In this document: in pieces, positions 11,388 through 39,749 of the stretch | Position numbering within the stretch: position 1 is the stretch's first letter | Layout: every line of letters starts with the position of its first letter | Program-made: the position numbers and the translations under genes | Notes under the pieces: generated by a model | The model's database searches: none | Seen by the model: only the letters and a program-made list of their open reading frames with translations | Told to the model about the DNA's origin: nothing | Sequence record: PP627283.1 | Strand: one strand, 5' to 3' | From: Escherichia phage SM_S22 | Length of the DNA stretch: 44,820 nt

Positions 11388-11708
11388 TGAAGCGGGACAG
11401 GCGGGACGTCCCGTTTTGTCCCACCTCTGTAAAACCGCATATCTAATCACTTTTATTGCATAAACTCAAAGCGGGACAGGCGGGACGTCCCGCTTTGTCA
11501 CACCCTGTAAATGTGCATACCTATGCAGATTTCGTGCATAAAACAAACGGGACAAAAAGCGGGACAAACACGAGGCGGGACAAAGCGGGACAGCACCCCG
11601 TCCCCGCCAGTGCTGCCGCGGTTTTCAGCCGATCGGGACAGCGGGACAGCACCCCAGTCTTTCAGACTAGACGGGGGTCAGCGGCCCCCCTCGTCTGAGA
11701 CTGAATAA
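11388..11708 (+). repeat. CGGGACA-repeat element, copy 1
   Basis: Two ~75-bp units each holding palindrome GCGGGACGTCCCGC, then a 112-bp unit (11548-11659) with six CGGGACA copies and a 49-bp hairpin tail (11660-11708) that are identical to 39478-39749. Confidence 0.85.
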
Positions 11709-21932: not shown

Positions 21933-23549
21933 ATGGCAGCGGGTACGCTATCCGTAACGAACAATAGCAAGGCGGTAGTAGGGGTCGGCACAACGTTTAC
22001 CGCGTTTAAAGCTGGCGACTTCCTAACGCTGGTGGTAGGGCAAGTCCCCTACACCGTGGCAATCGCATCAATCGAAAGTAACACGGCGCTTACGCTGGTG
22101 TTGCCGTTCGACGGCCCAACGGCAACCGGCCTCGCGTGGGATGGCGTTAAGCGCGATACCATGTCGCTGGCAACGATGGGCGTTACCGTACAGGCGCAAA
22201 AAGCATTGCGCTTGATGATCGCAGATGAAAACAACTGGCGTGCAATCTTCGGCGACGCTGAAGAAATCACAGTGACGTTACCTAACGGGCAGGTTATGCA
22301 GGGCATGTCATGGGGCTATCTGTCGCAGCTAATGAAGCAGATCGACCCTGTGGAGATGCGCAACCTGCAACAACAAGCCGCCGCATCGGAAGCAGCCGCG
22401 CAAGGATTTCGCAATGAGGCCGAAGGCTTCAAGACCGAGACGGCGGGTATTCGCGACGCCACCAATGCCATCAAGACGCAGACCAACCAGATTAAGGCTG
22501 ATACGCAGGCCATCAAGGACCAGACGAACCAGATCAAGACGGATACGCAGGCCATCAAGGACCAGACGAACCAGATCAAGACTGATACTGGCGTTATTCG
22601 AGATCAGGCCAATACCGCGAAGACGGACGCGCAAGCCGCCCGCGATGCCGCGCAGGGGTATCGGGATGAAGCCGAAGACTTCAAAAACGCGATCGACCCT
22701 ACGCAATTCATGAAGAAGTCGCAGAACCTGGCAGACGTCGCCGATAAATCGGCGGCACGCGCTAATCTTGGTTTGGGGTCGGCAGCTACGGAGAACACCG
22801 TTCCGATCGAGAAAGGAGGAACCGCCGCGACGACTGTAGCCGCTGCGCGCACTAATTTCGGGTTGGGCGATAACAATAACGTAAAACTTGGCACGTTGCG
22901 CCTAAACGGGGGTGAATCGCTAGTCTTCAATGATGTCGAAAGAAACGGCTTAGCACTATCCAACGTGTCGTACGGCATTGACAGTTGGGTAGGCTTCACC
23001 ATGCATAAATGGTACGCCGACTGGACACGCGCAGGAATTGTGCGTGCGGGTGACACCCACGTGTCAGACTACCGCATCCACGTGTGGAGAGATGGTATTA
23101 CTGAAGCGCTGTTCCGCTTCCTGCCGGACGGCAGGCTTATTCAGGGTAACAGCAACAACCTTTCCGTAAATGAGTTTCAGAAAGCAGCGCTGTCGGACCG
23201 CGACCTTAAAAAAGAAATCCAATACACTGACGGCGAGGAAAGCTACAACCGCGTTCGTCAATGGCTTCCGGCAATGTTCAAGTATAAGGAGTCTGACGTA
23301 CAGCGATACGGCCTTATCGCGCAGGACCTGGCAAGGATTGACCCGGAATACGTGCATTTGCTGCCGGGTTATGCCATTTATGAGGATATCAAGGGGGTTG
23401 ACGAGGAAGGGAACGAGGTTGTAGTCGACCGCAAGGAGATCGGGTATACCGACGATGTGCTGTGTCTGGACAGTAACGTGCTGTTGATGGACCTGTGTGC
23501 CGCCTTCGTCCACCTGTTGCATAAAGTTGAGAAGCTAGAAGGTAAATAA
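21933..23549 (+). CDS. tail fibre with C-terminal self-cleaving intramolecular chaperone domain
   Basis: 538 aa; tandem repeats IKxQTNQIKxDTQA; C-terminal SDRDLKKEI...YGLIAQDLARIDPEYV resembles Peptidase_S74 chaperone domains of T5 L-shaped fibre and endosialidases. Confidence 0.7.
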   Translation: MAAGTLSVTNNSKAVVGVGTTFTAFKAGDFLTLVVGQVPYTVAIASIESNTALTLVLPFDGPTATGLAWDGVKRDTMSLATMGVTVQAQKALRLMIADENNWRAIFGDAEEITVTLPNGQVMQGMSWGYLSQLMKQIDPVEMRNLQQQAAASEAAAQGFRNEAEGFKTETAGIRDATNAIKTQTNQIKADTQAIKDQTNQIKTDTQAIKDQTNQIKTDTGVIRDQANTAKTDAQAARDAAQGYRDEAEDFKNAIDPTQFMKKSQNLADVADKSAARANLGLGSAATENTVPIEKGGTAATTVAAARTNFGLGDNNNVKLGTLRLNGGESLVFNDVERNGLALSNVSYGIDSWVGFTMHKWYADWTRAGIVRAGDTHVSDYRIHVWRDGITEALFRFLPDGRLIQGNSNNLSVNEFQKAALSDRDLKKEIQYTDGEESYNRVRQWLPAMFKYKESDVQRYGLIAQDLARIDPEYVHLLPGYAIYEDIKGVDEEGNEVVVDRKEIGYTDDVLCLDSNVLLMDLCAAFVHLLHKVEKLEGK

Positions 23550-29130: not shown

Positions 29131-29173
29131 CGTCATGTCTCCCAAAAATGGCGGGACAAGCCCGCCGTATTAA

Positions 29174-29387: not shown

Positions 29388-29666
29388 CTATGCGACCAAT
29401 TCAGCAACCAATAAATCGCAGTCGGATATGTTGTCGATAACGCGAACGTCAGCACCGCGGCGGGCCATTCGCTCATGTTCACGTACCTGGTGCGGCTTCG
29501 GTTTTCCTCCGGGGCGCTTCACTTCGACGAACACTATTTTGCCGTTGATGATAATAATCAGGTCGGGCGCACCCGCGCGCCCCTCCCATGCCAGTTTTCG
29601 GCAGAATCCTCCGACCTCTTTCACCCGTTTCATCAGGTGACGCTGCACCTTGCCTTCTGGTGTCAT
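29388..29666 (-). CDS. VRR-NUC domain nuclease
   Basis: About 92 aa; APDLIIIINGKIVFVEVKRPGGKPKPHQ. Confidence 0.55.
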   Translation of the reverse strand: MTPEGKVQRHLMKRVKEVGGFCRKLAWEGRAGAPDLIIIINGKIVFVEVKRPGGKPKPHQVREHERMARRGADVRVIDNISDCDLLVAELVA

Positions 29667-30265
29667 TGTCGGCTTTTCCTTACGGCAGCGATGGCCGGTC
29701 CGATAAACTTCTTCATTTCGTCCGGGGTAAACCGGTCCCCGCGGGCTATGTTGCACTCTACGCAGCACGGCACGCAGTTATCTTTCGTATGACCTACCGT
29801 GTTGTCGAGTCGGTCCGCGCCATTGTCCCCGGAGAACCCGCAGTATGCGCACGGCTGAGAAGTAAGGCGCAGCACGTCCTCTGTAGTAAGGTCGGTGTTT
29901 ATCCCCTTCCTTTCGTCTGCCTTACGGTACTGAAAGAGTTTATAGTAAGCGCGGATCTCTGGTGTCCGGTGGTTGTACTCACGGCGTGACTTATTAGCGC
30001 ACGATCGGCATTCTTTACGGATATGTGACCCGTTTGCCTGGCTTCCGGGCCGGAAGTTTTCCGGCGTGAGCGGCTTGCGCTCTCCGCACGTACGACATGT
30101 TACGATCTCCCCGGTGTACTCTCGCCATACTTCTCTCGGCGGCGCGCCTCTTTCCTTATCACGTCTCTCTTTCTTATATGCCGCCATGCATTTGGCGCAC
30201 CACGACTGGCCCTTGTTGAAAGCGGACTCATCTTTACCCGTATTACAACGCCCACAATGTTTCAT
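29663..30265 (-). CDS. HNH endonuclease with N-terminal zinc fingers
   Basis: Several CxxC pairs; C-terminal HNH core CAYCGF...DNTVGHTKDNCVPCCVECN. Confidence 0.6.
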   Translation of the reverse strand: MKHCGRCNTGKDESAFNKGQSWCAKCMAAYKKERRDKERGAPPREVWREYTGEIVTCRTCGERKPLTPENFRPGSQANGSHIRKECRSCANKSRREYNHRTPEIRAYYKLFQYRKADERKGINTDLTTEDVLRLTSQPCAYCGFSGDNGADRLDNTVGHTKDNCVPCCVECNIARGDRFTPDEMKKFIGPAIAAVRKSRQ

Positions 30266-30331
30266 ATACACCTCGAAAAAGAAAACGCCAGACAATAATG
30301 CCCAGCGTTTCCGCTAAAAGCAACATTTCCG

Positions 30332-32623
30332 CTACTTGCGGTAGCGATACATGCAATCGCCCTCTGCGGCAAGTGGGAAGCCTTTCGCCCAAACAGGCAG
30401 GTCGCACATCAGCGCGCAAAGCTCCTCGGTCGTGTAGTCGTCGGTGTCCGGCACTTCTGTGATCAATTCGTCGTGTACGGACAGGACGATTTCATACCCA
30501 GCGGCTTCAACGCCGGGCATGGACCATGCGAGAATATCGCGGCACAACGCCTGTACGATGTTCTCCGTCAGTTTGCCGCCGTAGGTATACTGGAATCCCC
30601 ACTGGCGCGTCGTCTGATTCTCGCCCTGATATTTAATGCGTGTGCTGGTGCGCTTCTTGCCGGTGTCTTCGTCAATCTCGGTAGTGACAGACAGCGCGAT
30701 GCCGGGGTAGCTCATGATGCGCCCCGACGGCAACTCAATTTTCAACCACCACCCAGCGGCGTTCGGGTCGTCGCGCTCCTCGTCAAAGGTTGGGTCGTGC
30801 TTCGCCTTCGTACGGACAATCTTGAGCGCTTTTCTACCGTCCGGGCGAACGTTCGCACCAGCCCAGTATGCTTTGCCCGGATTGCGGATTGCACACAACA
30901 CCGCGTCCTCAAGCTCGGCCCAAAAGGCTACCGTCTTCGGGTGAGCCTCACGCCACATACGTTTGATCGCGTCGCACGTCAGCCATACGTTTTTCGGCAG
31001 TATGTAAGTCGGGCGCTCGTCCTTCTTGCCCGGCTTCGGTGGGCGTTTCGCTTCGTTAATGCGGGCGTACTCATAACCGCGTTTCGCCGCGGCCCAAATG
31101 TGGTCCGGGAACGTGCCTTTCATCACGTCCGCCATAGTGTAAAGGTCGAGGCCCAGGTTTTTAGCGAACTGCAAGAACGCCGCGACGCCGCCTCCATAGC
31201 CCAGTCCCAATTCGCACGCCTTACCGATCTGGCGCAAGTCTTTGCGGTTGGCTTTAATGTAGTCCGGGTCCAGGCCGAACATCTTACCGGCAGTCTCGCA
31301 ATAAATATCGCGACCAGCCCTAAATACCATTAGCGCGGTTTTCTCGCCCGCGATCCAGGCGAGGCCGCGCCCTTCCACGTTGGAGTAGTCAGCGACGACA
31401 AACTTCTTACCCTTCGCCGGAATAATGCACCCGCGAACAGTCGAGGCGGTCAGCTTCGATATGTCATACGCCCAGTGTGCGGTCCCGCGTAACAGGGAGT
31501 TGATGCCGTTGGTGAGCATGTGCGACCGGACCCAAAACGCGACGTCGCTCTCGCCTTCGCGGCGCTTAATCTTCCCTTCGTGGTCGTCGCTATACTCGCC
31601 GCGTGCCAGGTTTTGCGGCTGGAAGCCCTTACCGGCCCAGCGTAGCGTGCGCTTTGCCCCACCATACTGAAGACAACCACGGCGGCGACCATCGGCAGAC
31701 AGCCCATTTACGAGCGGATTGTATTTAGTCGATGCCGTTGATGACGCGCCGAGGCGCATTTCGATAAGCGCTTTGCCTTCGTCGGGGAAGTCCGGGTCTT
31801 CAAGCAGGTCGTTAAGTGTGGATTTCTGCGCGTTGTGGATCGTGAACGCTGGGGCGATATCACGCAGGATTGGCAGGAAGTCATTGCCGGTCAGCTTACC
31901 GCCAAATCGCTCCCAGGCTTCTTCCTTCAATTCCTCTTTATGCGCCTGCACCGCTTTGATCGCGGCGTTCGCCAGGTCAACGTCCACATAGAAGCCGCGG
32001 TCGTTAATCAACTGGTCGATAAGCAGGATTTCATCTTCCTTCGGAGTATTACCCCAGTCCGGTATGCGCCAGTAGACTTCACGCATTGCGATAATATCCA
32101 GCGCGGCATAGCGCAAAAATTTGGCCCATTCTTCAGGGTGAGTCTCGCGAGTGTAGCGGCGTATTTTGTAGGTCTTAGGGGTAGGCTTACAGAATCGTTT
32201 GATCAGCGCCTTGCCTGCCTTATCCTTCGCGTGCTCTGCGTCAACGCCCAGCACCTGGCACTGCATATCGAGGCTACCGGGCAGCGCGTGGCGAAAGGCC
32301 ATAATCATGGTGTCTTCGATCTGGCTTACCGGCAGGTCAATATCCCACTTCTCACGGATAACCAGGCGGTCAAACAGGAGGCCGTTAGCCATCACTATTT
32401 TTGCTTTCTTGCGGGATACCCGGCGGAGCGCCTTGCGCAGTTCACGCGGCATTGTGGGGGATTCAGTGCAATCCCATGTCTGCACGCGGCCCTCGTCGAT
32501 GGCGTATGTGCAAATCATAATCTCGGTGGTTGGGTGCTCTGCGTAGGCGTACGCCCCAACTTTCTTCAGGTCCACCCCGCTAAATGTCTCGGTGTCGAGA
32601 AACAGGCGTTCGAAGTCTTTCAT
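30332..32623 (-). CDS. DNA polymerase, family A, with 3'-5' exonuclease domain
   Basis: 763 aa; exo motifs LFLDTETF and YAALDI; pol motif A VVADYSNVEGR, motif B RQIGKACELGLGYGGG, motif C SVHDEL. Confidence 0.85.
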   Translation of the reverse strand: MKDFERLFLDTETFSGVDLKKVGAYAYAEHPTTEIMICTYAIDEGRVQTWDCTESPTMPRELRKALRRVSRKKAKIVMANGLLFDRLVIREKWDIDLPVSQIEDTMIMAFRHALPGSLDMQCQVLGVDAEHAKDKAGKALIKRFCKPTPKTYKIRRYTRETHPEEWAKFLRYAALDIIAMREVYWRIPDWGNTPKEDEILLIDQLINDRGFYVDVDLANAAIKAVQAHKEELKEEAWERFGGKLTGNDFLPILRDIAPAFTIHNAQKSTLNDLLEDPDFPDEGKALIEMRLGASSTASTKYNPLVNGLSADGRRRGCLQYGGAKRTLRWAGKGFQPQNLARGEYSDDHEGKIKRREGESDVAFWVRSHMLTNGINSLLRGTAHWAYDISKLTASTVRGCIIPAKGKKFVVADYSNVEGRGLAWIAGEKTALMVFRAGRDIYCETAGKMFGLDPDYIKANRKDLRQIGKACELGLGYGGGVAAFLQFAKNLGLDLYTMADVMKGTFPDHIWAAAKRGYEYARINEAKRPPKPGKKDERPTYILPKNVWLTCDAIKRMWREAHPKTVAFWAELEDAVLCAIRNPGKAYWAGANVRPDGRKALKIVRTKAKHDPTFDEERDDPNAAGWWLKIELPSGRIMSYPGIALSVTTEIDEDTGKKRTSTRIKYQGENQTTRQWGFQYTYGGKLTENIVQALCRDILAWSMPGVEAAGYEIVLSVHDELITEVPDTDDYTTEELCALMCDLPVWAKGFPLAAEGDCMYRYRK

Positions 32624-32790
32624 TGCTTTATCCTCACTACGGCGTCAGCGCTGCCGATCATGGAGAAGATACCGTCGGAAAGGGCGATTTCTTCGCCGTT
32701 GTTGCGAATCTCGGCAACTGTGAAATATTCTCCCAGTAGCTTGGACCATACTTGCATTCCGACTTTTACTTCGCTGGCTTTAATACGCAT
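32620..32790 (-). CDS. small hypothetical protein (56 aa)
   Basis: Stop overlaps polymerase ATG (ATGA); below ORF-track cutoff. Confidence 0.25.
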   Translation of the reverse strand: MRIKASEVKVGMQVWSKLLGEYFTVAEIRNNGEEIALSDGIFSMIGSADAVVRIKQ

Positions 32791-32805
32791 TTTTCATTGT
32801 CCTAT

Positions 32806-32829
32806 TAAAAAGCCCGCATTAAGCGGGCT
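32806..32829 (-). terminator. intrinsic terminator (minus strand)
   Basis: AAGCCCGC-loop-GCGGGCTT with T-run on the minus strand. Confidence 0.45.
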
Positions 32830-32848
32830 TGAATAATGGGCTTTGCCC

Positions 32849-33628
32849 TTAACGGCGGCGACGTTTGCGCGGTGCTTCGTCTTCGTCGTCTTCGTCCTCA
32901 TCTTCGTCATCGCGGGACTTGCGACGTTTGCGAGGTTTTTCATCTTCCTCATCGTCGTCGTCATCGCGGCGCTTGGATTTCTTGGACTTGCGCGGCTTGT
33001 CATCCTCGTCATCATCACGACGTTTTGACTTCTTAGCCTTACGCGGGCTTTCGTCTTCGTCGTCGTTGTCCAGGTCTTCGTCGGAACAAGAAGACCCGCC
33101 ACCTCCGAAGGCTTCGCCGTCTTCACGGAAGCGTAAACCCAGCAAGCCAGCACCGAGTCCCTTGCCGTTGGTGTTGTTCCACGCCCAAATATCCAGTGAC
33201 ACGTTGCAATAACAACCGGAATAGATTTCCTGGCCTTCGATCTCGTCGCCGTCGATAGTCAGACCCTGCTCGGTCTGCTTCTCGCCCAGTGACGTTTGAA
33301 TGTTTGGCTGCTTGAACGATTTGGCGTTGATGTACAACATGCCTTCGAATTCTTCGGTTACTTCGTCGCGCTCGTCACCGTCGCGAACTGCGCATTCCTT
33401 AGAATCCTGGGCGTAGTGGCGGTCCATCCACTTATCGGCATTCTTCTCGGATTTCAGCTTATCGGTGAGCACTGCGCGCGCTGCCGCTTCCACTTTGTCC
33501 ACCTGCGGATCTTCTTTATCCAGAAGAATCACGGCACGGTATGCCGGTTTTTGTCCATCCTGTTTAGGGGTATCACGTTCCCAAATTTTCAGGAAACATA
33601 CGCGCACATTTTTCAGGTTGACTTTAGC
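32849..33628 (-). CDS. ssDNA-binding protein (DUF2815-like) with charged repetitive C-terminal tail
   Basis: About 259 aa from MAKVNLKNVRV (RBS GAGGAA); C-terminus has three tandem ~17-aa D/E-block plus K/R-block repeats. Confidence 0.45.
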   Translation of the reverse strand, partial: AKVNLKNVRVCFLKIWERDTPKQDGQKPAYRAVILLDKEDPQVDKVEAAARAVLTDKLKSEKNADKWMDRHYAQDSKECAVRDGDERDEVTEEFEGMLYINAKSFKQPNIQTSLGEKQTEQGLTIDGDEIEGQEIYSGCYCNVSLDIWAWNNTNGKGLGAGLLGLRFREDGEAFGGGGSSCSDEDLDNDDEDESPRKAKKSKRRDDDEDDKPRKSKKSKRRDDDDDEEDEKPRKRRKSRDDEDEDEDDEDEAPRKRRRR

Positions 33629-33721
33629 CATTTTCCAATTCCTCATTTTCACATGTATCGGGGTTATTGGAAGCCACCCCGTTCGGCTTGGTTGCTAATC
33701 TACTTGGTTGCGCTTAAGCGG

Positions 33722-33964
33722 TCAAGCATTTTCATTAAAAAGATTTCTGGTCACGTAGTTGGTGGCGTTCTCGATCCAGCTTAGCGGCGGTCGGTCGATG
33801 TTCTTCTCCACCCACCCGACGGCAGCGTCACTATACCCGTCATCCAGCCAGCGAGTCGGGTGGCGAAACATCCACGCCACCATTAACACGCCTTGCACGC
33901 AATGCAGGATAAAGCCCAGCGCGCCGAGCAAAAACATCAATAAGATTGCAAATACTTTATTCAT
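33722..33964 (-). CDS. small membrane protein
   Basis: 80 aa; hydrophobic N-terminal segments. Confidence 0.35.
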   Translation of the reverse strand: MNKVFAILLMFLLGALGFILHCVQGVLMVAWMFRHPTRWLDDGYSDAAVGWVEKNIDRPPLSWIENATNYVTRNLFNENA

Positions 33965-35387
33965 TGCTTAAGTCCTCGTCAGTGGCCTCTGACCACGCAG
34001 GGCGCGGGTCGTCGATTGGTGCTAATACCGGCTTTGCCGGTGCGCGCGTGATTTTATCACACAGCTTCGCCCATACTTTCGGTTTTTCGTCCTTCAGTAC
34101 CTTCTCGGCATCCGTAGGGCTGAGCAATGTTTCTTTGTACATCACATCGCGCTTGATCCGGGCCTTCGTGAAGATTTCAATAACTTCGCTCTCGTCCGCC
34201 CACTTACGGATCCCTTCCTTACCGGCAACCATCTTGAGGCCCAGCGATTCGCCATCGCCCGCCATTACCGCTTTGAATACCGCGGACTCGATAGCCTTGA
34301 TGTGCTGGCGCATTGCGTCAAGACCTTCATATGCCTTGCGCAGTTCCGCGGCGGTCATAGCGCCTGGGGCCGCTTCTTTCTTGCCACGCTTCGCACGTCG
34401 TGCCGCTTTGCGGGCTTCGCGGGCCATATTGCGGTCGTGATTGGCGCATTCTTCCTCTGTCGCAATACTTACGTCGTCGCCCAGGTCTTCGTCTGTTGCC
34501 GTTGGTGGGGTCATCGTGTCGATTGCAGCCTTAGCGCGGGCGCTACACTGATCCGCAAATCTGCACCACTGACACGCATCAACGCTCGGTCGGAAGTCGG
34601 CACGGGTGAGTCCCTTTTTGCCGCGGTCGTACGCTTCCAGGGCGGCGATAGCACGCTTGGACGCAAACTTCGCGAATATCTCCAGGGCTTCTACCGAAAT
34701 ATCCCACTCCGACGCCCCGCCGCAATACGGCTGGAAGATAACCAGGCGCACGGTCGTGATGTCGTACATGGATTGCAGCTTGCGCAGCAGGCCGAGCGCA
34801 TACAGCATAAGCTGTTTGTTTTCTTTCGCTTCTACCTTATGCCGCCCCGTCTTCAGGTCGCCAACAATCAGCATGTACGTGCCGTCGGTCTTCTTCATGA
34901 CCATGACCATATCCGCAGTGCCGAACGTCTTAACCCGGTTGCCGTCGATCTCGAAGCCAGAGTGTAGGACGCGGGTGAGATCGGCGCGCATCTCAAGCTG
35001 AACAAACTCCGCCACTTCGAGGAGCGGTCGCCAGTGGTCTATGTATGCGTCGCACTGTTTCACCATGTCGTCGTTTACCAGTACGCCGCCTTTCGGCGCT
35101 TTCGGGTGTGCCTTTACCGGTCCCTTGCCTTCGTTCTCGACGTAACACCCTTTATACGTCTTTGCGGTTATCAGCTTTTCACCGGCGATAATGCGGTTTA
35201 GCACGACTTCAGATACGGTGTGCATACTCGTACCGTTAATCGCGGCTTGCCCGGATTCGTTTGGGATGTCTTTTTCCACCACCAGGGCGGCAGGGCAACC
35301 CATCCATTTTTTAGCACCGGATGGCCCGAGTAATGAGTGTTCCGTATTGCTACCGGATTGCGTTTTACGTTTTGGTTTAATCGCCAT
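33957..35387 (-). CDS. PD-(D/E)XK nuclease, Cas4-like (DUF2800-like)
   Basis: 476 aa; Cys cluster CQWCRFADQC near C-terminal third; adjacent to DUF2815-like and PolA genes. Confidence 0.5.
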   Translation of the reverse strand: MAIKPKRKTQSGSNTEHSLLGPSGAKKWMGCPAALVVEKDIPNESGQAAINGTSMHTVSEVVLNRIIAGEKLITAKTYKGCYVENEGKGPVKAHPKAPKGGVLVNDDMVKQCDAYIDHWRPLLEVAEFVQLEMRADLTRVLHSGFEIDGNRVKTFGTADMVMVMKKTDGTYMLIVGDLKTGRHKVEAKENKQLMLYALGLLRKLQSMYDITTVRLVIFQPYCGGASEWDISVEALEIFAKFASKRAIAALEAYDRGKKGLTRADFRPSVDACQWCRFADQCSARAKAAIDTMTPPTATDEDLGDDVSIATEEECANHDRNMAREARKAARRAKRGKKEAAPGAMTAAELRKAYEGLDAMRQHIKAIESAVFKAVMAGDGESLGLKMVAGKEGIRKWADESEVIEIFTKARIKRDVMYKETLLSPTDAEKVLKDEKPKVWAKLCDKITRAPAKPVLAPIDDPRPAWSEATDEDLSNE

Positions 35388-35865: not shown

Positions 35866-36309
35866 TTAATCTTCCAGTTCGAAATAGGTTTCGACGATTT
35901 CTTTTAAATCTTTGTGGAAGTCTTCGACGTCGTCATCTTCCAGCTTGGCGATTGATTTGATCTCGAACGCTTCCAGCAGGTCGTCGAATTCGTCGTTGGC
36001 GTCGTCGTCATCACCACCGGCGATAATCGCGGCATACTGTTTGATTTCGTCGCGCATCTCTGCCAGCGGATCGGCATCTTTCTTACCTTTGCCTTTCGCC
36101 GTGGCTTTTTTGCCTTTCGCCGGTGCTTTTTTGGTTTTCGCCGGTGCTTCGTCTTCAGCGTCGTCATCTTCTACGACTTCTTTTTTCGCCTTAGATGGCT
36201 TTTTATCTTCCTGCTTACCAACGGCAGCGCCAACGGTTTCATAATGCTTAGCGATGGTTTCCAGTGCTACTACGCCGCGAGTAATCAGGTTTACGATTTG
36301 TTCAAACAT
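35866..36309 (-). CDS. highly charged early protein (Lys-rich block between acidic blocks)
   Basis: 147 aa; RBS GGAGAT; first gene of minus-strand early operon. Confidence 0.5.
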   Translation of the reverse strand: MFEQIVNLITRGVVALETIAKHYETVGAAVGKQEDKKPSKAKKEVVEDDDAEDEAPAKTKKAPAKGKKATAKGKGKKDADPLAEMRDEIKQYAAIIAGGDDDDANDEFDDLLEAFEIKSIAKLEDDDVEDFHKDLKEIVETYFELED

Positions 36310-37051: not shown

Positions 37052-39316
37052 ATGAGCTTAATTAAATTCGCTGTAACAAGACCCGCTAAAAAAGGCGAAA
37101 AAGCCAGGGCGGAAAACTTCCAGATGACGACCGATGAGTTTTTCGAATTTATCAAAGATGCGAAAGAAATCTCCTCGGTGCATATCAACAAGACGGAAGA
37201 TAAAGCCGAGTATGCGCGCCGCAAGCGTAAGGCCGACGGCATCGTGGCGTATACCAGTGACGGATTGCGTCGTAAGACCAGTGCGGTGGACCGCTCGATC
37301 CTGTTCTTTGATATCGACCGCACCGACACTCGCACCTTGCGCCGCTGCCGTAAGGCTTTCATCGATGCGGGTCTGGAACACGTATTCCACACCACAACCG
37401 GCGACCGCCACCCGCTGAAAGGAGGCACGCGTTGCGCTCGTTTCCTGGTGCTCACCGATAAGCCTGTACCTGCTGAAGACCTGGGCCGCGTCCAGTATGC
37501 ACTATTACACCAACTGGGTCTGTCAGATGTGGACTTCGACGATTGCACGAAAGACACAAACCGCCTGATGTACCTGCCACACCAGCAGTCTGTTATTAAG
37601 TGCCACTACGGAAAACGTGCCCGAGTCCGTCGTCTGCTTCGCCTGGCGGATAAGTTGGGCGTGGAGAAGGAGGAAGTACGCCGCGAACTAACCCAGGGCG
37701 ATGACGCAGTGGCAGACGGCATTCTGGACTGGTGCTTCCAGGCAGGATTCGAGGAGTTATCTTCCGGTCGCGGTTATGAAGTGCCGTGCCCGAACGAACA
37801 TCTGCACAGCGGCGAAGGGTCGACGGCTATCATGGTCAAGGATGGCGAGATCCGTTTCAAGTGTATGCACACCGGCAACGAGTGTTGCTCGGAACTGAAT
37901 AGACACCAGCACCTGGCGCTGCGTCTTATCGGGATCCCTGACCACCTGAACGTCGAGCCACACAACATGTCCCGTAAGCAAATCGCCGCCATCCTTCCGG
38001 GGCTGGACGACGAGGAAGTCGAATCCTTATATGAACATATTGTTGATGCGGTTGGCGACGGCGAAGAATACGGCGTGTGCACCGATGCGGATCTGGATAA
38101 CGAGCCGGTTGCGCTGTTCAGCAAGCACGACCCGATCATCGAGGGGTTGATTAACTTCAAATCGACCTGGTACATGGCGGGTGAGTCGAATATTGGTAAG
38201 TCTTTCTACGTGCTGGGTCAAATGGGCGCTGTTGCCGCCGGTATTCCGTTCGGCGGTGCGAAGGTCGTCCAGTCTCATTGCTTCTATTTCGATGCGGAAG
38301 GTGGTGAAGCCTCCAACCAGCGTAAAGAAGCATTGCAGATTAAATACGAGCACGACCTGGACAAGCTGCACATTATCGATCTGCAGTCACGCGGCTGGGA
38401 TATCACCAGCAAATCCGGCTTGCGCGAAGTTATCAGCTTTATCAACCGCACCGCTAACGGCGAACCGGTTGGCCTGGTGGCGTTCGACTCACTCAACCAG
38501 ACTGTTGCGCTGCGGTCCGCCGATGCTAAACCGTTCGACGAGAACAACGCCAGCGATATGGGTGAAGTGGTCAAAGCGCTGAAAGCCATTGCGGAAAATA
38601 CAGGTGGCAGTGCGGGCGTCATCCACCACCCGGCGAAGGGTGCCAACGGCAGCAGAACCCCACGCGGATCCGGCGCGCTGCATGGTGCTGTCGATTCTGC
38701 GTTCTTCCTGGAGCAACCAGACGACAACCAGCCCGGACAATTGAACCTGTATCATGAGAAGGCACGTAACGGCATCAAGCAAGCGCCGCGCGGATTCGTC
38801 CTGCTCAAGTGCAAGGTGAAGGTGGATCTCCGCAAGTCAGAAGCGTTCGAGGCGCACCAGTCCACCAGCACCGGGCCAGACTTCGGTGACGTGGTTGCCG
38901 GTTGGGACGTCAAGCCGATTGCATCCACGCCTCGCGACGAGACTCTGTACCTCGTACCGGTCGCCCTGGCACCGTTCGCCATCGAACAGGCGAAGGCAGC
39001 GGGCAAGGCCGCAGTTAAGGAGGAGAACGCCGCAGGCCCGCGCAATGAAAAAGAGAAAGTGCTTTATGCAGCGCTGGAAAAACTGATGGAAGATAACCCG
39101 GACCATACCGGATTCAGCAAATCGGCAATTGTCCGCCAGGCTGGACTTGCGAAAGGTGGCACGTCGACAAAGGCAATCGACGATATGGTCGAGCGCGGCG
39201 TACTAGGTTTTTACACAGATCCACACACCGGGGCCATCTATGGGTCGTCGAATATCGTCATTAAAACGAATATACCCATCACGCTTTCGGCGACCGATGA
39301 GGATTTAAAAGATTAA
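37052..39316 (+). CDS. bifunctional primase-helicase (AEP/PrimPol-like N-terminus, P-loop helicase C-terminus)
   Basis: 754 aa; AEP-like LFFDIDRTD; Cys/His zinc module; Walker A GESNIGKS and Walker-B-like LVAFDSLNQ. Confidence 0.6.
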   Translation: MSLIKFAVTRPAKKGEKARAENFQMTTDEFFEFIKDAKEISSVHINKTEDKAEYARRKRKADGIVAYTSDGLRRKTSAVDRSILFFDIDRTDTRTLRRCRKAFIDAGLEHVFHTTTGDRHPLKGGTRCARFLVLTDKPVPAEDLGRVQYALLHQLGLSDVDFDDCTKDTNRLMYLPHQQSVIKCHYGKRARVRRLLRLADKLGVEKEEVRRELTQGDDAVADGILDWCFQAGFEELSSGRGYEVPCPNEHLHSGEGSTAIMVKDGEIRFKCMHTGNECCSELNRHQHLALRLIGIPDHLNVEPHNMSRKQIAAILPGLDDEEVESLYEHIVDAVGDGEEYGVCTDADLDNEPVALFSKHDPIIEGLINFKSTWYMAGESNIGKSFYVLGQMGAVAAGIPFGGAKVVQSHCFYFDAEGGEASNQRKEALQIKYEHDLDKLHIIDLQSRGWDITSKSGLREVISFINRTANGEPVGLVAFDSLNQTVALRSADAKPFDENNASDMGEVVKALKAIAENTGGSAGVIHHPAKGANGSRTPRGSGALHGAVDSAFFLEQPDDNQPGQLNLYHEKARNGIKQAPRGFVLLKCKVKVDLRKSEAFEAHQSTSTGPDFGDVVAGWDVKPIASTPRDETLYLVPVALAPFAIEQAKAAGKAAVKEENAAGPRNEKEKVLYAALEKLMEDNPDHTGFSKSAIVRQAGLAKGGTSTKAIDDMVERGVLGFYTDPHTGAIYGSSNIVIKTNIPITLSATDEDLKD

Positions 39317-39427: not shown

Positions 39428-39477
39428 TGTAGTGTAAATATAATGAATAGTTATGCAATAAAACTGCATAAAGTAAG

Positions 39478-39749
39478 CGGGACAAAAAGCGGGACAAACA
39501 CGAGGCGGGACAAAGCGGGACAGCACCCCGTCCCCGCCAGTGCTGCCGCGGTTTTCAGCCGATCGGGACAGCGGGACAGCACCCCAGTCGGGACAAAAAG
39601 CGGGACAAACACGAGGCGGGACAAAGCGGGACAGCACCCCGTCCCCGCCAGTGCTGCCGCGGTTTTCAGCCGATCGGGACAGCGGGACAGCACCCCAGTC
39701 TTTCAGACTAGACGGGGGTCAGCGGCCCCCCTCGTCTGAGACTGAATAA
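39478..39749 (+). repeat. CGGGACA-repeat element, copy 2 (tandemly duplicated 111-bp unit plus hairpin tail)
   Basis: Units 39478-39589 and 39589-39700, each with six CGGGACA copies and inverted GTCCC; tail 39701-39749 identical to 11660-11708. Confidence 0.85.

Follow-up and report, generated by a model that had tools for sequence, protein, structure and literature searches.

The C-terminal tails of SSBs are known from textbooks as short acidic 'landing pads'. T7 gp2.5 has an acidic tail whose C-terminal Phe is essential, and both gp2.5 and E. coli SSB dock their partners via an acidic, hydrophobic tip. In ORF6 of the Enterobacter/Hafnia phage Enc34 (5ODJ/5ODK/5ODL), the type member of PF10991, the tail is about 29 aa long, purely acidic (16 D/E) and ends in WDEDEV, and it gives the protein its ssDNA selectivity (PMC5686142). 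T4 gp32 uses a basic element: its LAST motif contacts the acidic region of a neighbouring molecule to produce cooperativity, and such basic-acidic contacts control both cooperativity and DNA access (PMC12893549). A 'predicted SSB, Gp2.5 family' of phages SECphi4 and SECphi18 triggers Retron-Eco8, as does the T7 gp2.5 family (Stokar-Avihail et al., bioRxiv 10.1101/2022.08.27.505566). The retron is reported to sense SSBs through msDNA. Escape from activation by the SECphi4 SSB maps to T56P in the core, and one SECphi4 escaper is mutated in the intergenic region upstream of SSB (bioRxiv 10.1101/2022.08.27.505566). Since the structural model in that study covered residues 1-186 and omitted the 'flexible C-terminal residues', the tail was left unanalysed there. 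Our searches on DUF2815, Dhillonvirus SSB, SSB polyampholyte and SECphi4/Eco8 found no literature on the mixed-charge tail described below.

Here we have analysed a window of 44,820 nucleotides from Escherichia phage SM_S22 (PP627283.1), which is a Dhillonvirus, and whose SSB ends not in an acidic segment of the Enc34 kind but in 78 aa that include four basic blocks and finish RRRR. Our main reading, to which we give a probability of about 0.5, is that basic blocks, which would add self-association or DNA contacts, have lengthened a regulatory acidic tail of the canonical kind. The gene occupies 32849..33631 on the minus strand (260 aa plus stop). Its likely start is the ATG at 33631, with GAGG 9 nt upstream and a product beginning MAKVNL, the start also used by the SECphi4/18 proteins; the mechanically called ORF begins at GTG 33652, and the initial annotation had placed the gene's end at 33628, 3 nt short of the ATG. 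Its proposal that the product is a DUF2815-family SSB agrees with the Pfam match, the PDB sequence matches and the predicted fold. Specifically, PF10991 (Enc34_ssDNA-bd, formerly DUF2815) matches at E 5.9e-32 (111.2 bits, cut-off 26), with residues 2-192 aligned to profile positions 2-173 of 176; phrog_112 ('Gp2.5-like ssDNA binding and annealing protein') matches at E 1e-51; phmmer finds PDB entries 4klk, 4jg2 and 5odj at E about 1e-11; and annotated Dhillonvirus SSBs are 95% identical, the orthologues being called SSB in many records. The mixed tail leaves PF10991 membership unaffected, as it lies outside the Pfam domain. The SECphi4 and SECphi18 SSBs are direct orthologues that share start, core and tail type and differ by few substitutions, so the gene itself is already known, as the published Retron-Eco8 trigger.

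The core (aa 1-176; 33104..33631, minus strand) was modelled by AF2 with pLDDT 90-98 over residues 1-170, and the predicted structure is a single OB-fold domain with gp2.5/Enc34 topology. Foldseek aligns this model with 5odl_A (E 5e-13, target TM 0.72), 4klk (E 6e-13), 4jg2 and T7 gp2.5 (1je5_B, E 5.5e-7). Three of the five ssDNA-contacting residues of Enc34 are conserved or conservatively replaced (W150/R112/Y30, aligned with W149/K104/F13); the others are not, Y156 aligning with N155 (W151 lies two residues off) and Y37 with T21. Taken together, profile and model support a T7 gp2.5/Enc34-type OB-fold SSB of the Enc34 family. Enc34 ORF6 belongs to the same family, with the same predicted OB-fold variant and a C-terminal stretch that is unstructured, at only about 21% identity; T7 gp2.5 (1JE5) is 11-16% identical and shares the fold, a replisome SSB/annealing role and a net-acidic disordered tail. 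Two other SSB types were considered and rejected. Pfam, PDB sequence and fold searches returned no gp32 match, and T4 gp32-type membership lacks core homology, the resemblance to LAST being confined to basic-block composition. For the bacterial, E. coli-type SSB, Foldseek was insignificant (1qvc and 1eqq at E about 1-2.4, probability at most 0.1) and the protein has no acidic or hydrophobic C-terminal tip.

The gene lies in a phage replication module, ordered as primase-helicase (37052-39316), DUF2800/PDDEXK_1 nuclease (33957-35387), SSB, a 56-aa ORF and the family-A DNA polymerase (DNA_pol_A, 30332-32623), and the same order recurs at four other loci. A promoter-like site, TTGACC-17 nt-TAGATT, is placed upstream of SSB by a consensus scan only (33697..33725, minus strand). 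Just past the stop, RNA folding predicts an intrinsic terminator, a hairpin of AAGCCCGC-UUAAU-GCGGGCUU with a U run behind it (32805..32830, minus strand), at -21.6 kcal/mol (z -3.8), a stability reached by 0 of 200 shuffles; the consensus scan missed this hairpin, and a 'terminator' is annotated there in related GenBank records.

Beyond the core, a Gly/Ser linker (GGGGSS, then C; aa 177-182, 33086..33103, minus strand; pLDDT <50 at 178-181) leads into the tail (aa 183-260, window 32852-33085), which reads as four acidic/basic units, all on the minus strand. Unit 1 (aa 183-205) joins a proximal acidic-hydrophobic motif common to canonical acidic tails, SDEDLDNDDEDE (aa 183-194, 33050..33085), to basic block 1, SPRKAKKSKRR (aa 195-205, 33017..33049); the AF2 model places a short helix at 184-187 inside this motif, and D191 is nearly invariant in our alignment A1. 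Unit 2 is DDDEDD plus KPRKSKKSKRR (aa 206-222, 32966..33016), unit 3 is DDDDDEEDE plus KPRKRRKSR (aa 223-240, 32912..32965), and unit 4 is DDEDEDEDDEDE plus APRKRRRR-COOH (aa 241-260, 32852..32911). The initial annotation had described three tandem ~17-aa repeats encoded by tandem DNA repeats: the repeat tail is real but its units number four, and the DNA repeats are likewise real but degenerate. Indeed, TRF reports 2.2 copies of a 51-bp period at 32949-33061 (77% matches), this period being made by units 1 and 2, and a further 9-bp array at 32877-32912. The protein thus terminates in a basic block with neither a hydrophobic tip nor a terminal aromatic residue, and its end is ...EAPRKRRRR or ...KAPRKRRRR in 16 of 16 Dhillonvirus orthologues and EKPRKRRRR in SECphi4. 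A eukaryote-style NLS reading of PRKRRRR/KPRKSKKSKRR was dismissed as unsupported in a coliphage context.

Charge in this tail is strongly segregated. Its 78 residues comprise 36 D/E and 28 K/R (net charge -8), and the sign of the charge switches only 7 times as against 31.4±3.9 in shuffled sequences, none of 5000 shuffles reaching 7; the approximate kappa is 0.6. AF2 assigns it pLDDT 48-59 and no secondary structure, and the model contains no confident docking or contact of the tail on the core. The tail is hence predicted to be an intrinsically disordered, net-acidic 'blocky polyampholyte': it has the disorder, net acidity and proximal motif of an acidic tail, yet also four basic blocks. By analogy, such a tail could drive self-coacervation into a condensate-like replication focus of SSB-ssDNA and replisome, with unit number tuning the saturation concentration. 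In eukaryotic R-rich mixed-charge domains of nuclear speckles, condensation varies with length and with patterning (bioRxiv 10.1101/771592; PMC9324279), and these domains share with the tail a disordered, low-complexity K/R-D/E composition with patterned charge; the charge segregation and predicted disorder, the resemblance of R/D-rich distant homologues to these domains (tails with 22% R and 28% D) and a multivalency that rises as units are added, to as many as 11 basic blocks, all point the same way. However, speckle domains are non-homologous, eukaryotic and nuclear, mostly built of fine RD/RE dipeptides and near neutral, whereas SM_S22 has a net-acidic tail with blocks of about 8-9 residues. 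Furthermore, the Dhillonvirus tail is short and as rich in K as in R (K/(K+R)=0.43), a composition less cohesive in the cited systems, and a net charge of -8 to -10 works against self-coacervation if neither DNA nor cations participate. We consider coacervation quite unlikely as the main role of the tail.

Close relatives show how this tail evolves. The suggestion that copy number may vary between isolates proved right, as close Dhillonviruses carry 4, 3 or 2 units, owing to at least six distinct deletions that each removed units in frame: unit 2 is missing in locus L005, EK99P-1 and Envy, unit 3 in phage JL1, and SECphi18 has four units where SECphi4 has three. Within Dhillonvirus we saw losses from the four-unit state only and no tail with more than four units, and the viability of phages with 2 units implies that no particular unit is essential; the mixed tail itself is fixed across the genus. 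Variation of this kind, together with a tail frameshifted in two sequences, might suggest that the repeats are a neutral low-complexity expansion of GA-rich codons by replication slippage, without a role and appended to a functional core. Against this, across 120 pairs of 16 orthologues dN/dS is 0.068 in the tail (dS 0.48) and 0.042 in the core, values that are rough in a low-complexity region of mostly two-fold-degenerate codons; units 1 and 2 have a near-identical basic-block peptide yet differ synonymously at 6 of 10 codons, so the repeat persists in the peptide while the codons have diverged synonymously; and the reading frame is intact in the 16 orthologues and SECphi4 across six different deletions. 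As judged from the coding sequences, the tail is under purifying selection and functional rather than drifting, and neutral expansion, already disfavoured, is in our view highly improbable.

The repeats are not an assembly artefact, as the region occurs in about 157 independent phage records as well as IMG/VR contigs. Two overlapping ORFs, a poly-Ser frame at 32865-33212 (plus strand) and another at 32794-33153 (minus strand), were rejected as coding and are by-products of the GAN/AAR/CGN codon repeats; among the frames compared, only that of SSB combines a dN/dS of 0.07 with in-frame indels. The two frameshifted sequences are singletons, one from a GenBank isolate (MZ234008.1) and the other a metagenomic contig, in which +2 nt and -1 nt changes put the tail wholly out of frame. 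Should both sequences be right, plaque formation may not need the tail. More practically, the repeat is a place where assemblies and gene calls can break or shift frame (L010, MZ234008.1), and the mixed-charge tail skews word-based homology searches.

Indeed, our first protein search, which was word-indexed, took its seeds from words of the tail and so made nearly all homologues look mixed-charge; it was set aside as biased and corrected by an exhaustive HMMER search with the core only, the family survey covering the best 150 of ~2144 50%-identity clusters. Among the nearest full-length representatives from this core-only search, 124 of 140 (89%) have a tail without any basic block and 9 of 140 (6%) have two or more, so that the initial view of the tail as unusual beside purely acidic ones holds within the family. 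It is, though, not special to SM_S22, being genus-wide and recurring in more than 100 distant protein clusters. Specifically, the mixed-charge pattern is found in at least 112 protein clusters at core identities down to about 25%, and 110 of the 112 have a switch count that falls below shuffles by more than 3 SD. The repeat period has a median of 17 aa (10-90% range 13-22), Pro occupies 83% of acid-to-base junctions, and the net charge is -10.8±5.5 as against -8.3±3.2 in canonical tails, which mixed tails exceed three times in length. Acidic count follows basic count closely (r=0.95, slope 1.2, intercept +6). Across core identities of 25-95%, the tails keep their period, their junction Pro and their net charge, which further speaks against a neutral origin. 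A D-[DE]-[FL]-[DE/G] motif about 5 residues past the core is shared by 82% of mixed and 75% of canonical tails, and one distant mixed-tail homologue (P0095) ends in DEIPF. Canonical-tail proteins with a core identity of 35-41% stand nearer to the SM_S22 SSB than do many mixed-tail proteins, at 21-30%. More tentatively, on an NJ core tree built from 159 columns of divergent sequence, mixed tails fall in several clades with a Fitch minimum of 18 changes, which would suggest several origins.

This wider family also bears on the possibility that the basic blocks are mainly auxiliary nucleic-acid-binding and annealing elements, in an SSB that forms an exonuclease-plus-annealase recombination pair with the DUF2800 PD-(D/E)XK nuclease. 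Here K/R blocks would offset the repulsion between phosphates and link up a second strand once the core is on ssDNA, the acidic blocks only masking the basic blocks off DNA. In keeping with this, the PHROG family carries the label 'ssDNA binding and ssDNA annealing protein', the nuclease lies one small ORF off both here and at distant loci, and every basic block adjoins an acidic block of similar length (8.8 against 8.4 aa); deletion of the Enc34 tail, moreover, unmasks dsDNA binding (PMC5686142), showing that DNA selectivity in the family is under the control of tail charge. However, relatives with purely acidic tails adjoin the same nuclease, canonical- and mixed-tail proteins alike sitting within the primase / DUF2800 / SSB / PolA / SNF2 module, so the module needs no basic blocks, and a net tail charge that stays negative speaks against net DNA attraction. 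An annealing role as the principal function of the blocks appears rather unlikely.

Returning to a canonical acidic tail lengthened by basic blocks, we infer from net charge, proximal motif and module context that canonical tail function is probably retained. The gene would be the phage's replication/recombination SSB, transcribed from its own promoter in the replication module. The proximal motif corresponds to the whole tail of canonical relatives, extended by four xPRK...RR blocks and, alternating with them, three further acidic blocks. Acidic blocks could compete with ssDNA for the basic cleft, giving auto-inhibition and selectivity for ssDNA over dsDNA as in Enc34 ORF6 and T7 gp2.5, and may also dock replisome partners; partner recruitment, if any, must nevertheless differ from that of T7 gp2.5 and E. 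coli SSB, because the tail ends RRRR. The basic blocks, each charge-balanced by its adjoining acidic block, would add multivalent electrostatic contacts, to the acidic blocks of a neighbouring SSB, favouring cooperativity or self-association on ssDNA as gp32 LAST does, and/or to DNA phosphates, helping strand annealing. The LAST motif (KRKST) is similar in composition to the basic blocks PRKSKKSKRR, but gp32 has a non-homologous core and its basic and acidic elements are single-copy at opposite ends, making this a functional analogy only. How long and how multivalent the tail is would depend on the number of units, 2-4 here and as many as about 11 elsewhere, with net charge unchanged, and in-frame recombination between repeats would remove units. 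More tentatively, it is possible that in a sizeable minority of T7-type phage SSBs the 17-aa repeat tail acts as an electrostatic 'zipper', a single tunable disordered element that merges the cooperativity of gp32's basic N-terminus with the docking and auto-inhibition of its acidic C-terminus, maybe nucleating condensate-like replication foci, with unit number as an evolvable dial for cooperativity or condensation.

The system is tractable: the phage infects E. coli K-12, its SSB type has already been expressed and studied as the Retron-Eco8 trigger, and sibling phages (SECphi4 vs SECphi18, and BASEL phages such as GeorgBuechner) offer natural 2-, 3- and 4-unit alleles. By keeping net acidity while interleaving charge-matched basic blocks at a ~17-aa period, these tails may represent a second, unexplored mode of SSB regulation.

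The gene at 32849..33631 on the minus strand encodes a known SSB of 260 aa, with a core spanning approximately residues 1-176 and a C-terminal tail spanning residues 183-260. Its sequence is already known: roughly 160 GenBank phage records match the surrounding 1.2 kb at 90-96% identity. SECphi18 and several BASEL phages are among them, and with few exceptions the records come from Escherichia phages in the genus Dhillonvirus, a group of HK578-like siphoviruses. Annotations of the orthologues vary from 'hypothetical protein' and 'DUF2815 family protein' to 'putative single-stranded DNA binding protein' and 'Gp2.5-like ssDNA binding protein and ssDNA annealing protein'. The mechanical ORF opens at a GTG (32849..33652, minus strand), but the likely start is the ATG at 33631, with GAGG located 9 nt upstream; it yields the N-terminus MAKVNL... 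found in the SECphi4 and SECphi18 proteins and in protein cluster P0001, leaving the gene end of 33628 in the initial annotation one codon short.

Assignment to the DUF2815 family, as proposed initially, is borne out by profile, structure-database and fold comparisons. Residues 2-192 match Pfam PF10991 (Enc34_ssDNA-bd, formerly DUF2815; E 6e-32), the protein matches phrog_112 of PHROGs ('Gp2.5-like ssDNA binding protein and ssDNA annealing protein'; E 1e-51), and its sequence matches the solved DUF2815 structures 4klk and 4jg2 as well as Enc34 ORF6 (5odj/5odk). In an AlphaFold2 model based on 62 aligned sequences, pLDDT is 90-98 for residues 1-170 and 48-59 in the tail, where the sole secondary structure is a four-residue helix (184-187). 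Foldseek aligns this model with the ssDNA-bound Enc34 SSB (5odl_A; E 5e-13, TM 0.72 on target), with 4klk and 4jg2, and with T7 gp2.5 (1je5; E 5.5e-7), and returned no significant match to E. coli-type SSBs. The Enc34 residues that contact ssDNA include W150, R112, Y30, Y156 and Y37 (PMC5686142); the first three align with W149, K104 and F13 of the present protein, whereas Y156 falls on N155 and Y37 on T21, W151 and W17 being close by.

The tail, which was initially described as three repeats, comprises four units of one acidic and one basic block when counted from residue 183, together covering 32852-33085: SDEDLDNDDEDE-SPRKAKKSKRR, DDDEDD-KPRKSKKSKRR, DDDDDEEDE-KPRKRRKSR, and DDEDEDEDDEDE-APRKRRRR followed by the stop. 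Tandem DNA repeats do encode it, as a degenerate 51-bp repeat (32949-33061, 2.2 copies, 77% matches) and a 9-bp array (32877-32912) identified by Tandem Repeats Finder. Its 78 residues include 36 D/E and 28 K/R for a net charge of -8, and the sign of charge switches only 7 times, compared with 31.4±3.9 in shuffled tails (0 of 5000 shuffles reached 7; approximate kappa 0.6). The alternating acidic/basic pattern is thus real and far beyond chance, and an assembly artefact as the source of the repeat is rejected by the presence of the region in ~157 independent phage records.

Four lines of sequence evidence indicate that this tail is under selection. First, across 16 Dhillonvirus orthologues (120 pairs), dN/dS is 0.068 for the tail at dS 0.48, a value that is approximate given the tail's composition, and 0.042 for the core. 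Second, the basic blocks of units 1 and 2 (PRKAKKSKRR and PRKSKKSKRR) are near-identical although 6 of 10 codons differ synonymously, which argues that selection keeps the peptide rather than the DNA repeat. Third, the same design rules recur among homologues at core identities of 25-95%: 110 of 112 mixed (alternating acidic/basic) tails have charge-switch counts over 3 SD below those of shuffled tails, units repeat with a median period of 17 aa (10-90% range 13-22), basic and acidic blocks span ~8.8 and ~8.4 aa, and Pro occupies 83% of acid-to-base junctions, typically as [RKA]-P. Fourth, net charge is held at -10.8±5.5 in mixed tails versus -8.3±3.2 in canonical, purely acidic ones, despite a threefold difference in length (81 versus 25 aa), with the acidic residue count increasing in step with the basic one (slope 1.2, intercept +6, r=0.95). 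These data speak against the tail being a neutral low-complexity expansion, which we consider unlikely. Both tail types also open, ~5 residues past the core, with a D-[DE]-[FL]-[DE/G] motif (82% of mixed and 75% of canonical tails; DEDL here). Given this shared proximal motif and the conserved net charge, the simplest anatomical description of the mixed tail is a canonical short acidic tail carrying an added, charge-balanced [basic-acidic]n array.

The Enc34 study regards a long acidic tail as a trait common to all SSBs of prokaryotes and phages (PMC5686142), and that of Enc34 ORF6 is purely acidic (16 of the last 29 residues are D/E, ending in WDEDEV), whereas the tail studied here is interleaved with basic blocks. 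In a first homologue search nearly all relatives appeared to have alternating tails; this search was seeded on shared 5-residue words, many of which come from the tail itself, and was thus biased toward mixed tails. With only the core (aa 2-181) as query, an exhaustive HMMER search recovered 2144 family clusters at E≤1e-3; the best 150 included 140 full-length proteins, whose tail types were scored. No basic block was present in 124 (89%), one in 7, and at least two in 9 (6%), a mixed-tail frequency of 6-11% that describes these best representatives rather than the whole family. The mixed-charge tail is therefore a minority design, and the initial view of it as unusual beside purely acidic SSB tails holds within the family. 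In absolute terms it is not rare: 112 clusters were gathered whose tails have at least two basic blocks, with maxima of 11 blocks and 190 aa. By core identity, some canonical-tail proteins (clusters P0128, P0134, P0139 and P0140; 35-41%) are closer to this SSB than many mixed-tail ones (P0073, P0074 and P0105; 21-30%), and in a rough NJ tree mixed tails spread over several clades, a scatter that would mean either several gains or several losses. Tail type is not tied to a different replisome: the layout primase / DUF2800 / SSB / PolA-like / SNF2 occurs at mixed-tail loci L011 (a Labrenzia prophage) and L012 and at canonical-tail loci L021 and L022. In many distant mixed tails the tip is still acidic and the final residue hydrophobic (...DDDDVV, ...DDDDI, ...DEIPF), unlike in the Dhillonvirus tails, which end in PRKRRRR. 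Separately, the tail alone (32852-33085) matches, over aa 184-258, positions 301-392 of phrog_15004 (E 3e-4), a second PHROG SSB family with a profile length of 421, which may have similar mixed-charge tails built in.

Copy number does vary between isolates, as had been anticipated. Four units are found here and in SECphi18, Kente and related loci L001-L004, L006 and L008; three in SECphi4, GeorgBuechner, EK99P-1, JL1, Envy, L005 and L009; and two in L007 and clusters P0003 and P0004. At least 6 different deletion forms occur, every one in frame and bounded by equivalent positions in different units, which points to unit loss by recombination or slippage between repeats. In matching records sampled at even intervals from the total of 157, the 441-bp region measures 381-455 bp and ~6 of ~50 full-length matches are one unit shorter; four-unit P0001 contains 537 sequences against 7 and 1 in two-unit P0003 and P0004. 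Four units are therefore the common state. No Dhillonvirus with more than four was seen among the orthologues and records compared. Two tails are out of frame, in MZ234008.1 (L019, Escherichia phage vB_EcoS-22664B1; ~2085-2310, +2 nt) and in L020 (Logan ERR1097471 contig; ~1715-1976, -1 nt), and their called proteins (P0005, P0008), read in another frame, continue past the normal stop and terminator. Both may reflect errors made in sequencing or assembling the repeat, or may be natural tail-less mutants; if the shifts are real, the tail would be dispensable for plaque formation. Contig L010 (IMGVR_UViG_3300045988_003101) ends within the tail, its last codons reading AVSYTHLRAHET, which resembles peptides translated from Illumina transposase adapter sequence and suggests that the repeat broke the assembly.

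Judged by its neighbours, the SSB gene sits in a replication module, with a helicase-primase (37052-39316, plus strand), a DUF2800 PD-(D/E)XK nuclease (33957-35387, minus), an 80-aa ORF between nuclease and SSB, a family-A DNA polymerase (30332-32623, minus) and, beyond it, an endonuclease VII/HNH-like ORF and a SNF2-like helicase. A promoter-like site lies directly upstream of the gene and a strong terminator hairpin directly after its stop codon. Between SSB and polymerase, a 56-aa ORF (32620-32790, minus; phrog_10102, function unknown) has a stop overlapping the polymerase start; in SECphi18, whose orthologue is identical, the ORF has a frameshift (E21fs) in a mutant that escaped defence, and the adjoining table entry is polymerase mutant R171L, which escapes Borvo (Stokar-Avihail et al.); from this order we infer the defence system that E21fs escaped. 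Downstream of the polymerase, a 210-aa Cys-rich ORF (29663-30295, minus) matches endonuclease VII/HNH families (phrog_1035, E 1e-43) and, less strongly, a Lar-like restriction-alleviation family; the orthologous SECphi18 position is annotated 'restriction endonuclease'. Also in the module, a 147-aa ORF (35866-36309, minus; phrog_3127, function unknown; no Pfam match) has a charged, low-complexity centre (...EDDDAEDEAPAKTKKAPAKGKKATAKGKGKKDAD...) between acidic stretches. This centre is reminiscent of histone H1 with its lysine/alanine repeats, and part of it is encoded by a tandem repeat of 21 bp (36088-36149, 3 copies, 90%). Elsewhere, the octamer GCGGGACA has 16 copies, each on the plus strand (2.3 expected; none of 100 shuffles had as many), in two intergenic clusters, 11392-11648 (79-bp unit repeated 2.1 times, 11390-11555) and 39477-39689 (111-bp unit present twice at 100% identity, 39478-39700), with one further copy at 29151; the clusters look like candidate binding-site arrays for a regulator or replication protein. 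A 42-bp tandem repeat (22467-22588, 2.9 copies, 91% matches) encodes an in-frame 14-aa repeat within a 538-aa ORF of the structural/tail region (21933-23549, plus).

The SECphi4 SSB is toxic when co-expressed with the retron that it triggers, Retron-Eco8, and the escape mutation, listed as T56P in the core, lifted toxicity; the published model covered residues 1-186, leaving aside the 'flexible C-terminal residues' (Stokar-Avihail et al.). We found no comment on the mixed-charge tail in the literature searched, and it is apparently undescribed. In Enc34 and T7, the acidic tail fills the basic ssDNA cleft off DNA, conferring ssDNA selectivity and auto-inhibition, and also offers acidic residues to replisome partners (PMC5686142). 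Because net acidity is conserved and the proximal motif shared, the mixed tail most likely keeps these jobs: its acidic part would occupy the cleft off DNA, with the same selectivity and auto-inhibition, and would present acidic residues to replisome partners. Every added basic block is charge-matched and set off from the preceding acidic block by Pro, and its K/R/S composition is like that of the LAST motif of T4 gp32, which touches the acidic region of a neighbouring molecule to give cooperative binding (PMC12893549). On these grounds we favour, by analogy, a model in which the acid/basic units would supply multivalent contacts between SSB molecules and to DNA. That the tail mainly promotes annealing, beside the DUF2800 nuclease, remains an alternative, as does the formation of condensates like those of eukaryotic mixed-charge domains. 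Under the favoured multivalent-contact model, unit number would set the valency and reach of the tail. As a variant of the SSB C-terminal tail, the mixed-charge repeat is real, under selection and polymorphic in copy number, and, by the homologues compared, a minority of the Enc34/gp2.5-type family shares it.
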